IMG/VR virus record: IMGVR_UViG_3300045988_150638
DNA: 64,000 nt
Origin: a virus
Taxonomy: Duplodnaviria; Heunggongvirae; Uroviricota; Caudoviricetes
Reading direction: 5' to 3' (one strand)
The notes under the pieces are model-generated. The model saw nothing but the letters and a program-made list of their open reading frames with translations, searched no databases and had not been told where the DNA came from. A program made the translations under genes and the position numbers. Below are positions 4,493 to 58,940 of the stretch, in pieces (the stretch's first letter is position 1; each line of letters starts with the position of its first letter).

Positions 4493-4854
4493 CACTATCA
4501 GCTATTGAGTTAATGGATCTCAGCGATAAGTTGGATGCTCTGATGTCCAAAGCTGCTACCGCGAGTGGCATGGAGTTGCTGGATATCAGCGATGAAATTG
4601 ACCAGATCATGCAACAGATGGGGTACGGCGCGTCCGGCAGCGGTAGTGGCGAGGAAAAACAACCTTCGGTACATGATGGTGTGCCAAAACTGGTTGCTGA
4701 TTTCCTGGCTGATAAATTCGTCGATCAGAGCACTGATGCATTTATCGGTACGTTACAGGACTTGAGTCAATATGTTGGCACATACATCGACCTGGACCAG
4801 GTTAAACAGCACACGGCGGCATGGATAGCCGCCAACATTAAAGAGGCAGAATAA
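4489..4854 (+). CDS. ddrA: DdrA
   Basis: 121 aa; start overlaps darA stop; position in dar operon. Confidence 0.5.
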   Translation: MTLSAIELMDLSDKLDALMSKAATASGMELLDISDEIDQIMQQMGYGASGSGSGEEKQPSVHDGVPKLVADFLADKFVDQSTDAFIGTLQDLSQYVGTYIDLDQVKQHTAAWIAANIKEAE

Positions 4855-4866
4855 GGCGTAACAGGG

Positions 4867-36148: not shown

Positions 36149-37077
36149 ACTTCACCCTCGCTTGTATCGCCAGCATCCACCAGCGGCAATAAAGCCCTGG
36201 CCATCTTATGAACCAATAGTGCATCAATAATGCCAAGCGTATGCCCCGGCTTAATGTTTAATGCCGCCTCAAGGTGACACCTTTCCAGGCCACTTTTCTC
36301 GGCTTGTTTATGATGATCTGGTGTAATAACGTCGCCCAAAACACGGCTAATTCTTTCTCGTAATTGCTGGGTGCCAGCACACTTGATCGCTGTATCGTGG
36401 AGACGGTTAACCAGTTCGCGATAAACATGCGGCTTAATTCGGATACGTTCACCGGTGACGCCCTTTCCTGGTGCTGGCACCGAACTATCCGGAATGTCCG
36501 GATAGTTGCCAGCCTCGTAAGCTACCCGCAGCCAGTGCATGAATGTTTCAGTGGACACACAACCACAGTCCACATCGATTTTCCCGCGTTGCTGTTCCAG
36601 CCATTGCCCAAAATCCAACCTGTAAGTCTTACTTTCAAGTTCATCACCATTGAACTCGACTTTCTGCGACGCTATGAGAGCTGATTCGTATTGTTCGCGA
36701 GTGACAACTGACTGGTATTCATCGCTATCAAGGTCACCAATTGGAAGCTCAATCTCACAACAAAAATTGCGCCCAAAGAAAGTGTCTTTTTTGTGGTCTG
36801 AGCCAAAAGCAAAAGTCGCGCATGGTGCCATTAAATTGACACTGGGTAGGTAACAATAACTCATTCCATCAGGCCACCCGCCGCACTTAGGCAGCTCCTT
36901 CACTAACAAGTCGATAAGCTTCATTTTTTTATCATCTTTGCAAGCCGCCAAAGCCATTTGGGCAAGTGCCAATACTTCATCTGCCGTATATCCAGCACCG
37001 TGACCATACATTTCGATACGGGAAATAATCTCTGATATACGCTCTTCAGTGATTCTGGTCATTTCTTTTTGCGCCAT
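36145..37077 (-). CDS. hypothetical protein
   Basis: 310 aa; overlapping start/stop with neighbours. Confidence 0.4.
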   Translation of the reverse strand: MAQKEMTRITEERISEIISRIEMYGHGAGYTADEVLALAQMALAACKDDKKMKLIDLLVKELPKCGGWPDGMSYCYLPSVNLMAPCATFAFGSDHKKDTFFGRNFCCEIELPIGDLDSDEYQSVVTREQYESALIASQKVEFNGDELESKTYRLDFGQWLEQQRGKIDVDCGCVSTETFMHWLRVAYEAGNYPDIPDSSVPAPGKGVTGERIRIKPHVYRELVNRLHDTAIKCAGTQQLRERISRVLGDVITPDHHKQAEKSGLERCHLEAALNIKPGHTLGIIDALLVHKMARALLPLVDAGDTSEGEV

Positions 37078-57400: not shown

Positions 57401-58131
57401 TTATTAACCTCATTACTGGTTGGGAAATAAGGTTGCGGTGCCGGGTGCCTCCCGGTGTCCTTTAGCTGGTTATCCACCGTGGACGGGGAAATAAGGAGAA
57501 ATAATGGACAGATATAACCATTTCCCCGCGTGCGCTTAGCCGCATTCACCGCAACGGAAAGAGCATTCCTGGTGGACCTGTAGATTGGGATATGAACCCG
57601 TTACAGGAGAATGCTCTTACCTGTTACGTGCTCCGTTTCGTGGAGCTAACGGCGGGTGATCGGGCCGCACCAGACTGGACTTATTTCAGCGTTATGCTCA
57701 TGCCAGAGAATCAAACTGTGATGGTCGGTGCTGAACTCCGACACAGGGTTGTAGCAAGCCACGCAAAGCGCGCACTACTGTAGTTGCGGCACATCAGCCT
57801 GTGCATTCACCACAATGTTGAGAACACTGGTTGTCACGCTGCAACGCAACATTTATTCGTAGATTGGGATATGACCCCGTTACGCCAGTGTTCTCAACGT
57901 TGTAGTGCCGGTTACGGTTCCGGCCAGGCCTCTTCCTCAACGGGGTGTTCTCCATACGGACTACCGTTTATTGGTCGTTCCTGCGGTTTATGTTGTGAAG
58001 CCAGATGCTTATCTTCTGGTTGCTTCAAAGAGCTGCACTTCATCACAACGGTAAGGGTACTTCGTAGGGATTCGAACCCTCTGCCAAGCTCGGCGATCTC
58101 CGACGTCGCAAAATACCCTTACCTGTTGTGC

Positions 58132-58207
58132 TGGTGCCGATTAACGGACTCGAACCGCTGACATCCTGCTTACAAGGCAGGCGCTCTACCAACTGAGCTA
58201 AACCGGC
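58132..58207 (-). tRNA. tRNA-Thr (anticodon UGU)
   Basis: 76 nt cloverleaf with 7-bp acceptor stem, anticodon loop CUUGUAA, T-loop TTCGAGT, 3' CCA. Confidence 0.85.
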
Positions 58208-58285: not shown

Positions 58286-58940
58286 ACTTGCCGGGTACGT
58301 CTCCGGCGAGGGCTTCCACCTCCGTATGCTTTTCGGCGCACCGCGCCCTGGCTGCAATTCGGTAACAGGGGATGCACAACCCTGGCTTCCAGCGTGATTA
58401 GCGCCTTCAGCATGACGGGATATACCCGTAAATTCGTGGAACTGTACCCAAAGTGCTGTTAAGCACCGCTGTTACGCTGAAAAGAAAACGCAACAGGAAA
58501 GGACGCTGACCAACAGATGGCCCCTTCTCGTTCATCTGGTTAATCACACCAGCGCCCTTACCTGTTGTGCCTCCCCGTTCCCTAATACACAGACGGGGAC
58601 ACTCTGCGGTCGATTTTTTTGACGGGGGACGACTCATACCCCGTGGCATCTGGTTTCTTAGGCCGCTACCATCATCAGATCATCGTTTGCATTTACTTTA
58701 ATGGTCAGTTTCTAAACCGCCGCAAAGTCGCTAACCATGACGAAAACCCTGAAAAAAACGCCCACCCGAAGATGGGCAAACTGGAAGCTCGTAACGCACT
58801 TCGGCGTTGCCACTTAGGCGCATGGTCAACCTGGCAACTCGGTGGTTTGTCTGGGAGGACTAGGCCCAGCCATGCTTACCGCCGCGCCTGTCGCGGCTAA
58901 CAGCTAAATCGCTCTATAAATCACGATTCATTGAGGCGAT

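Follow-up and report, generated by a model that had tools for sequence, protein, structure and literature searches.

Three groups of described RNAs are among the closest points of comparison for the element considered here. The first comprises tRNA-like RNAs without a functional anticodon arm, namely, mascRNA/MEN-beta, the tRNA-like domain of tmRNA, and the YrlA module, in which a T-arm bearing the UUCGAAU loop carries a stacked acceptor-like stem, a GG-bearing analog of the D-loop is present, the anticodon arm is reduced or replaced, and no decoding takes place. The second consists of long, near-perfect duplexes formed from the flanks of structured RNAs in polycistronic transcripts with tRNAs, namely, the RNase III processing stalks represented by the stems enclosing 16S and 23S rRNA and by the R-sites between the early genes of phage T7. 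The third includes GOLLD and ROOL, ornate noncoding RNAs of 400-800 nucleotides (nt) from Gram-positive and rumen phages, which are encoded next to tRNA genes and belong to the lytic phase. Element B, an 87-nt hairpin encoded on the minus strand of a 64,000-nt stretch of Caudoviricetes DNA (IMG/VR record IMGVR_UViG_3300045988_150638; hereafter, the window), resembles each of these in part: it has a tRNA-like core, a long closing stem, and a place next to tRNA genes in a phage operon leader. The evidence presented below makes it very likely that element B is a conserved functional RNA module, as opposed to a tRNA gene or a product of chance.

The 1.2 kb surrounding element B is 99.6 to 99.9% identical to phage P1, and this comparison identifies the 64-kb window as P1. 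A reading of the same DNA made without database searches (the sequence-only reading) had singled out this element and pointed to the P1 tRNA region for comparison; the P1 reference annotation indeed places element B within the ban operon leader, on the minus strand of the window and after trnT. The order of the operon, all of it on the minus strand, is the C1-controlled promoter Pban/Op72, the "dicF-like region," trnA (Asn), trnT (Thr), element B, tciA-B-C, trnI, and ban. Element B starts one base past the CCA of tRNA-Thr and is adjoined by no site resembling a promoter or terminator; the sole P1 annotation over it is an open reading frame (ORF) on the opposite strand, plp.

The dominant structural feature of element B is its closing helix. 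The 10-bp acceptor-like stem described in the sequence-only reading, GGTAAGGGTA paired with TACCCTTACC on the minus strand, is real, and is part of a longer helix that extends outward, beyond a bulged A, through CACAAC/GTTGTG, and inward through UUUUG/CGAAG. In full, the helix (CACAAC/GTTGTG, the bulged A, GGUAAGGGUA/UACCCUUACC, and UUUUG/CGAAG) comprises 21 bp and closes a core of 54 nt. The acceptor-like 3' strand, CGAAGUA, runs on into CCCUUACC, itself base-paired within the stalk; the lambdoid copies carry GCUCUUUCC at that place. The minimum free energy (MFE) of element B is -42.7 kcal/mol, with z = -5.2 to -5.7 relative to dinucleotide shuffles, and none of 200 shuffles folded as well. 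Within the core, the T-arm that had been called perfect has a canonical 7-nt loop, UUCGAAU, closed by a G-C pair, although its stem consists of four Watson-Crick pairs and a G.A, so the description was slightly generous. The acceptor-like strand follows directly upon this T-like arm, in tRNA fashion. Both a D-arm and an anticodon arm had been reported lacking; the latter is indeed missing, with a 10-nt CC-loop-GG segment in its place, whereas a D-arm-like hairpin with GG in the loop is present (58108-58094). It is possible to draw the core as a four-way junction like that of a tRNA, with the acceptor-like stem stacked on the T-arm, a GG-loop D-like hairpin, and a vestigial, hypervariable "anticodon" hairpin.

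The closing helix is maintained by compensatory substitutions. An alignment of 26 distinct variants of element B (A1) was assembled, and a covariance model (R1) was built from it; a seemingly divergent copy at locus L008 (pSa1423-90k), an indel-ridden sequence of low quality, was left out. Across the 26 variants, the 21-pair helix is 93% paired, compared with 34 to 58% in slid-partner controls; 11 of the 21 pairs show changes on both sides, and the observed covariation was reached in none of 500 shuffles. For instance, alignment pair 28-79 occurs as UG, AU, GC, CG, and GU, and pair 27-80 as GC (17) or UA (9), and in the copy from locus L094, the outer stem is wholly different in sequence, with pairing retained. 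Within the helix, G.U combinations outnumber A.C combinations 54 to 6, which indicates that it is selected as RNA on the minus strand of the window, that is, the sense strand. Model R1 scores the window copy at 112.3 bits on this strand vs. 22.8 bits on the antisense strand. This asymmetry, together with an orientation that is always sense to transcription, disfavors an attachment-site-like DNA element, one of the options raised in the sequence-only reading.

While the stem drifts, the core stays nearly constant. Between P1 and L094, 38 of 39 core positions are identical but only 21 of 41 stem positions (~97% vs. ~50%), and the two core blocks of 18 and 21 nt (39 nt in total) contain 2 and 3 variable columns, respectively, compared with 33 of 42 in the stem. 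The CC-loop-GG segment is the only hypervariable part of the core, with the loops GAGCUU, GUGCUU, AUUCUU, AUUAUU, AUUGCUG, ACUUGCU, AUGCAG, and GAAGUCA distributed by lineage (mean identity 0.68). Three scans of IMG/VR and one metagenome scan, in which the blocks were freed in turn, returned many chance matches in GC-rich coding DNA. With the T block alone held fixed, a single variant of the D-like block was found (L119, with a GCCGG loop change), and the scans of IMG/VR and the metagenomes with the T-stem left free yielded no T-stem variant. Because these block-free scans gave no variant except L119, ascertainment bias is not the sole reason why the core looks nearly invariant. When 100 arm-selected loci were searched with a covariance model for diverged B cores, the matches were all arm-driven, at 42 bits or less.

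This pattern is difficult to reconcile with element B being a degenerate tRNA, that is, a nonfunctional, decaying duplicate in the P1 tRNA cluster. The T-loop consensus, the GG-containing D-like loop, the 7-bp acceptor-like stem, and the location in a cluster that is polymorphic among P1 relatives all fit such an origin, and element B could still have a tRNA ancestry. A decaying sequence, however, would not be expected to keep a core that is ~97% identical in P1-like, lambdoid, and Uetakevirus contexts while the flanking stems diverge to about half identity and compensate; furthermore, element B is found without a nearby tRNA gene, and neither ARAGORN nor the Rfam tRNA model recognizes it. The conservation pattern thus largely refutes the decaying pseudogene, which we consider very improbable.

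The sequence-only reading was to be refuted if the element proved to be a chance palindrome that relatives lack, and this is decisively not the case: element B occurs, with compensatory changes, in P1-like plasmids by the hundreds and in unrelated phage lineages. Identical copies are present in 488 PLSDB plasmid records and at 703 places on Escherichia coli plasmids, all P1-like. A scan of IMG/VR with the core pattern returned 109 contigs, among which there are ~19 non-P1 contexts, and Enterobacter phage BUCT554 (Uetakevirus) carries an 85%-identical copy with no tRNA nearby. Among the GTDB species representatives, one Escherichia contig and one chance match were found, indicating that element B is phage-borne and rare. 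Contexts were read from clustered, annotated neighbor proteins. In lambdoid phages, element B lies between the gene for the Q antiterminator (PF06530/PF03589, with NinG before it) and those for holin, lysozyme, and Rz, directly after a tR'-like terminator, a position that corresponds to the late-operon leader. In BUCT554-like phages, the portal and terminase genes flank a small accessory block that contains it, and a gene of the gp49/gp66 family lies downstream. In every context, element B is oriented sense to the flanking transcription unit. The P1-like, lambdoid, and Uetakevirus contexts have no protein in common, suggesting that any partner would be supplied by the host and not by the phage. 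At locus L017, the Q antiterminator (-1364 to -237 from element B) contains an N-terminal HNH_3 endonuclease fused to the Q/DUF1133 region, resulting in a protein of 375 aa, compared with ~204 aa in relatives.

Searches against known RNA families were uniformly negative for element B. ARAGORN called only Asn, Thr, and Met(CAT) tRNAs in the window and no tmRNA, leaving element B uncalled, and called no copy of element B in the other carrier loci as a tRNA. The Rfam searches covered the entire window and 13 carrier loci with the gathering score as cutoff, as well as segments of 2.7 kb and 106 nt with a cutoff of E <= 10; at these settings, nothing beyond true tRNAs rose above threshold. The tRNA model RF00005 had no match on 58035-58140 even at E <= 10, and element B has neither a free acceptor end with discriminator and CCA nor a complete cloverleaf with an anticodon arm. 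The best scores on element B (E <= 10, 106 nt), 14.9 bits for mascRNA and 14.6 bits for tRNA-Sec, are far below threshold; for mascRNA-menRNA (RF01684), the gathering score is 42.5 bits, and the E value was 0.75 in the 106-nt search. The weak matches to tmRNA_permuted and beta_tmRNA lie elsewhere (58620-58788) and are sub-threshold, the single YrlA match (RF02553; 25.6 vs. 69 bits) falls on the real tRNA-Asn/Thr genes and off element B, and STnc100 (RF02076) gave no match on element B. The check with ARAGORN and Rfam that the sequence-only reading had proposed therefore has a plain outcome: element B is neither a tRNA gene nor a member of any curated RNA family. Unlike in mascRNA, tmRNA, and YrlA, the acceptor-like stem of element B has no free 5' or 3' end and no CCA but runs on into a conserved stalk of 14-16 bp; element B is encoded in phage leaders and has no Rsr/Ro or SmpB context. 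Its likeness to mascRNA is an architectural analogy only. Similarly, element B differs from GOLLD and ROOL in being 87 nt long and modular, and these families had no Rfam match here.

The closing stem recurs far beyond element B. The sequence-only reading had found a 16-mer, CCCTTACCTGTTGTGC, repeated upstream of tRNA-Asn, and this observation holds beyond chance: there are exactly two copies in 64 kb (58116-58131 and 58555-58570 on the plus strand), compared with a chance expectation of 0.02, and none of 100 shuffles gave two or more. The first copy is the 5' stem arm of element B together with G58131. What had been missed is that the 16-mer is an arm of a four-hairpin family and that the stem is a widespread scaffold with many cores. 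The P1 window carries four such scaffold hairpins, A, B, C, and D, all with long closing stems (Table 1); hairpins A, C, and D have related arms and z values of -5.5 to -6.1. The arm scan of IMG/VR and the loci collected revealed at least 448 scaffold hairpins, distributed over at least 273 phage loci; their cores fall into at least 50 unrelated clusters, 8 of which include a T-loop-like hairpin. In the commonest T-loop cluster, cargo F, the T-like hairpin covaries, with three of six pairs changed on both sides and 98.5% pairing, which supports T-arm hairpins as genuine structural units of this family. Rfam covers none of the scaffold hairpins, and RefSeq annotates nothing across them. Taken together, sequence comparison shows the closing stem to be a generic scaffold, with the same arms around at least 50 unrelated cores in lytic-phase leaders of numerous enterobacterial phages, among tRNAs and STnc100-type domains. 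At locus L192 (minus strand, ~4248 of the reverse complement), a 102-nt cargo contains two T-arm-like hairpins, CUGG-UUCAAUU-CCAG and GUCCG-UUCGAUU-CGGAC, reminiscent of the double T-loop modules that dock on tRNA elbows.

Table 1. Positions of element B, its constituent parts, and associated features in the window
Feature	Position	Strand	Description
Noncoding leader block	58571-58735	-	Homologous to sequence before scaffold hairpins in lambdoid, N4-like, T1-like, and Ackermannviridae phages; read from sequences
Hairpin A	58489-58569	-	Upstream of tRNA-Asn; 5' arm carries the second 16-mer copy; z = -5.5; R1 18.4 bits
tRNA-Asn (P1 trnA)	58285-58210	-	ARAGORN, Rfam, and P1 annotation; co-transcribed neighbor of element B
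tRNA-Thr (P1 trnT)	58207-58132	-	ARAGORN, Rfam, and P1 annotation; co-transcribed neighbor of element B
Element B	58044-58130	-	87-nt hairpin, long closing stem and tRNA-like core; sequence, fold, covariance model R1
Closing stem, 5' strand	58114-58130	-	CACAAC (58130-58125), bulged A (58124), GGTAAGGGTA (58123-58114); pairs covary across 26 variants
Closing stem, 3' strand	58044-58059	-	TACCCTTACC (58059-58050) and GTTGTG (58049-58044); sequence, covariation
Acceptor-like strand	58109-58115	-	UAUUUUG, with CGAAGUA (58064-58058); cargo-specific inner part of the long helix
D-arm-like hairpin	58094-58108	-	CGA(C)-GUCGGAG-(A)UCG, GG in loop; near-invariant sequence
Variable linker/mini-hairpin	58084-58093	-	CC-GAGCUU-GG, 10 nt, at anticodon-arm position; loop varies by lineage
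T-arm-like hairpin	58066-58080	-	AGGG-UUCGAAU-CCCU; predicted in MFE; invariant in all copies
Hairpin C	57808-57907	-	Diverged arm sequence; 23-nt arms 91% complementary; z = -6.1
Hairpin D	57551-57627	-	Arms GGTAAGAGCA/TGCTCTTTCC; z = -6.0; R1 33.3 bits
STnc100-like closed domain	57434-57553	-	Rfam RF02076, 34.8 bits, E = 2.9e-5, gathering 47; after hairpin D, upstream of tciA (TerB-like)

The arrangement of the arms in P1 relatives bears on a different type of explanation, namely, that the hairpins are DNA-level recombination or mobility sites (repeats similar to miniature inverted-repeat transposable elements [MITEs], attC-like sites, or module "boundary sequences") that shuffle noncoding and tRNA cassettes, with RNA structure being incidental. 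In P7 and Ro157, these arms enclose another core, of 35 nt; RCS47 combines P1-type and P7-type cores in tandem with 196 extra bases, and L010 has a hybrid stem. The core differences between P1, P7, Ro157, and RCS47 are explained, at the sequence level, by recombination between the repeated arms, and the series of B only, P7-type only, and both with 196 additional bases is what arm recombination would be expected to produce. The same arms also flank very different cores in many phage families, and the outer stem, ...CAAC/GTTG..., loosely recalls, as we take it by eye, attC core sites. A DNA-level role, however, does not account for the one-strand selection manifest in the G.U and A.C counts, for the constant sense orientation, or for the true compensatory series (UG, AU, GC, CG, GU) in the cargo-specific inner stem. 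Inverted arms are present, as in MITEs, but the interiors are unrelated between copies and the junctions read show no target-site duplication. The neighbors examined in the three contexts include neither a transposase nor an integron integrase, and the "cassettes" between hairpins are noncoding or tRNAs, whereas attC sites flank ORF cassettes. We therefore regard a DNA-level function as distinctly improbable; arm-mediated homologous recombination probably occurs as a consequence of the repeats rather than as their function.

Cassette exchange also speaks to the only annotated gene in this stretch. In GenBank, the entries for P1 assign this DNA (57786-58163, plus strand) to Plp, a "putative lipoprotein," and conservation of a protein on the opposite strand could in principle account for that of element B. 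Several features argue against this: plp has a TTG start and shares its DNA with hairpin C, element B, and the 3' terminus of trnT; in RCS47 and Ro157, its C-terminus is wholly different, in keeping with their cassettes; P7, D6, SJ46, and pPSS-10_3 lack its start context; and similar antisense ORFs over element B in other phages (cluster C0) are shadows of the conserved RNA. By these comparisons, plp is not conserved and is probably a spurious ORF, and we give next to no credence to the possibility that it is the cause of the conservation.

The scaffold hairpins travel with a larger noncoding neighborhood. In virulent N4-like, T1-like, and Ackermannviridae phages, an island begins with the conserved leader block, continues with a scaffold hairpin and an STnc100-type domain closed as GUGGUGAAU...CACCAC, and is followed by tRNA genes. 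In P1, the part of the ban leader between the dicF-like terminator (58778-58759) and hairpin A (58571-58790, minus strand) has homologs in the lambdoid late leader past tR' and in the noncoding islands of IME11 (N4-like), MK54 and ZCEC08 (T1-like), and UPM2146 (Ackermannviridae); the loci compared were L097, L017, L011, and L348-L351. This homology points to a noncoding module shared horizontally across very different phage families. Near scaffold hairpins, 874 tRNAs are co-oriented with the hairpin and 14 are opposite, and a tRNA is located within 1.5 kb in only ~20% of the non-P1 carriers. In a lambdoid late leader (L029), tRNA-Gly(TCC) (4787-4861, minus strand) comes after element B and a closed GUGGU...ACCAC domain, an order showing that tRNAs and scaffold hairpins use interchangeable slots after the motif ...CACCACAAC.

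The STnc100-type domain follows scaffold hairpins in lambdoid leaders as well as in P1, is closed by a covarying GUGGUGA/UCACCAC-like pairing, and ends at the terminator before the holin gene. Prophage small RNAs (sRNAs) of the STnc100/PasD type have been described (Zhu, Shabalina & Storz 2026; bioRxiv 10.64898/2026.05.13.724894), and they share the neighborhoods of element B, namely, lambdoid late regions, TerB/TciA-like genes, and tRNA matches. The STnc100 domain, however, is an adjacent closed domain with its own terminator, whereas element B has neither a terminator nor an RF02076 match. The Pas sRNAs of that study were considered as counterparts of element B and set aside, given that they are terminator-containing, Hfq-type sRNAs and differ from the hairpin. 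Another lead that was rejected concerns phage phi80, whose "M3 RNA" is a classical non-tRNA substrate of RNase P: in the phi80 record, M3 is the oop homolog (36229-36288), and the phi80 late leader contains no scaffold hairpin.

On balance, and with moderate confidence, the explanation that we favor as a whole is that element B is a tRNA-elbow-mimicking RNA module, co-transcribed in lytic-phase leaders, with a processing stalk and a released core; of the options listed in the sequence-only reading, "tRNA mimic" and "processing element" remain the best descriptions. Element B is transcribed within the P1 ban-operon leader, and under this scenario, its duplex of about two turns would serve as a stalk for a double-strand-specific RNase of the RNase III type. 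Substrates of RNase III are near-continuous duplexes of ~20 bp or more, and the helix of element B, with 21 pairs and one bulged A, 93% paired across the variants, is such a duplex. Cutting of the stalk would separate the neighboring tRNAs and mRNAs and free the core as a small stable RNA. As in the P1 scaffold, with its four copies, established RNase III stalks occur in several related copies per transcript; the scaffold differs from the rRNA stalks in that the cargo is only 35-100 nt long and hypervariable between copies, that the arm sequences are conserved across phage families, and that cleavage is predicted. On this analogy, we consider the processing step evenly poised between right and wrong. 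The freed core would display a T-loop/D-loop "elbow" without an anticodon or CCA and could hence compete with tRNAs for, or lure away, a host factor by which tRNA shape is recognized, with no decoding; RNase P, enzymes of the TruB/TrmA type, and a tRNA-targeting defense nuclease are candidates. This trans-acting role of the core, modeled on its predicted shape, is put forward tentatively and is, by itself, on the unlikely side.

The main competitor of a trans-acting core is a purely cis-acting processing or stability element, whereby the hairpin would provide RNase III/RNase E punctuation or 3' protection that aids tRNA maturation and leader segmentation, and the core would have no function in trans. 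The position of element B one base from the CCA end of tRNA-Thr, the alternation of hairpins, tRNAs, and closed domains as modules, the co-orientation of tRNAs and hairpins, and the conservation of the arms whatever the cargo are all compatible with this possibility. Yet a simple stem-loop would be enough for punctuation, whereas in element B, 39 core nucleotides are near-invariant as the stem drifts; moreover, ~80% of the non-P1 carriers lack a tRNA within 1.5 kb, and element B also occurs alone between a terminator and the holin gene. A role confined to cis therefore seems unlikely to us.

Several observations weigh against the elbow-mimic scenario itself. No tRNA, tmRNA, YrlA, or mascRNA model is significant on element B, the T-stem includes only four Watson-Crick pairs, and the equivalents of connector nucleotides 8-9 and CCA are missing. 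RNAalifold favors another interior, in which UCGGA of the D-like loop is paired with UUCGA of the T-loop; in a structural model, this pairing could equally be a loop-loop contact, akin to an exaggerated tRNA elbow. The inner D-like, mini-, and T-like helices never vary and have no covariation support, and the near-invariance of the core could in part reflect recent horizontal spread rather than long-term selection. Among the 50 cargo types, 42 have no T-loop, and the tRNA-likeness of element B may not be the point of the scaffold. Finally, the literature searched, which concerned the ban operon and tRNAs of P1, its transcriptomes, the role of RNase III in this phage, and tRNA-like elements in the late leaders of lambdoid phages, contains nothing on element B, its cleavage by RNase III, a stable released RNA, or a partner.

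The tRNA genes that accompany the hairpins in P1-type clusters vary as well. The gene at 56626-56701 (minus strand), called tRNA-Met(CAT) by ARAGORN, is annotated in P1 as trnI, a tRNA-Ile2 whose CAU is read as Ile after lysidine modification, and is 89% identical to E. coli ileX. The tRNA set of the cluster is polymorphic among P1 relatives (L002, L009, L123, L212, L004, and L005): some contain tRNA-Arg(TCT) in place of tRNA-Asn, others have tRNA-Tyr(GTA) inserted between the Asn and Thr genes, and tRNA-Ser(TGA) is found in P7/D6-type genomes, not in P1.

The tRNA-like RNAs, phage leader RNAs, and processing stalks each are already known kinds of RNA. The family described here, and above all its pairing of a stalk conserved in sequence with cargos that are hypervariable, in many phage families, matches nothing in Rfam or in the literature searched. 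At its broadest, and as a quite unlikely extension, enterobacterial phages might share a modular "RNA cassette" system, in which a conserved double-stranded stalk, as a universal scaffold for expression and processing, carries at least 50 cargo types of small structured RNAs in lytic-phase leaders beside tRNAs, with the commonest cargo, B, being a tRNA-elbow decoy that would neutralize or hijack a host factor sensitive to tRNA shape, such as a tRNA-targeting anti-phage nuclease or a tRNA-processing or -modifying enzyme, and the cargo diversity reflecting a small-RNA arms race.

Although few phages have been studied as thoroughly as P1, the doubtful ORF plp is the only annotation in this part of its ban operon. 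Even on a minimal reading, the results yield covariance model R1, the coordinates of a new RNA family, and a corrected gene annotation. They also add an unannotated noncoding layer to the "moron" and tRNA regions of lambdoid, N4-like, T1-like, Ackermannviridae, and epsilon15-like phages, including the Q-to-lysis leader, which is the site of the tRNAs and toxin genes of Shiga-toxin phages. Should the stalk indeed serve for processing and its cargos function in trans, phages would have a new way of bringing small RNAs into play in the course of lytic growth, and the stalk would provide a natural, ready-made scaffold for the expression of structured RNAs in enterobacteria.

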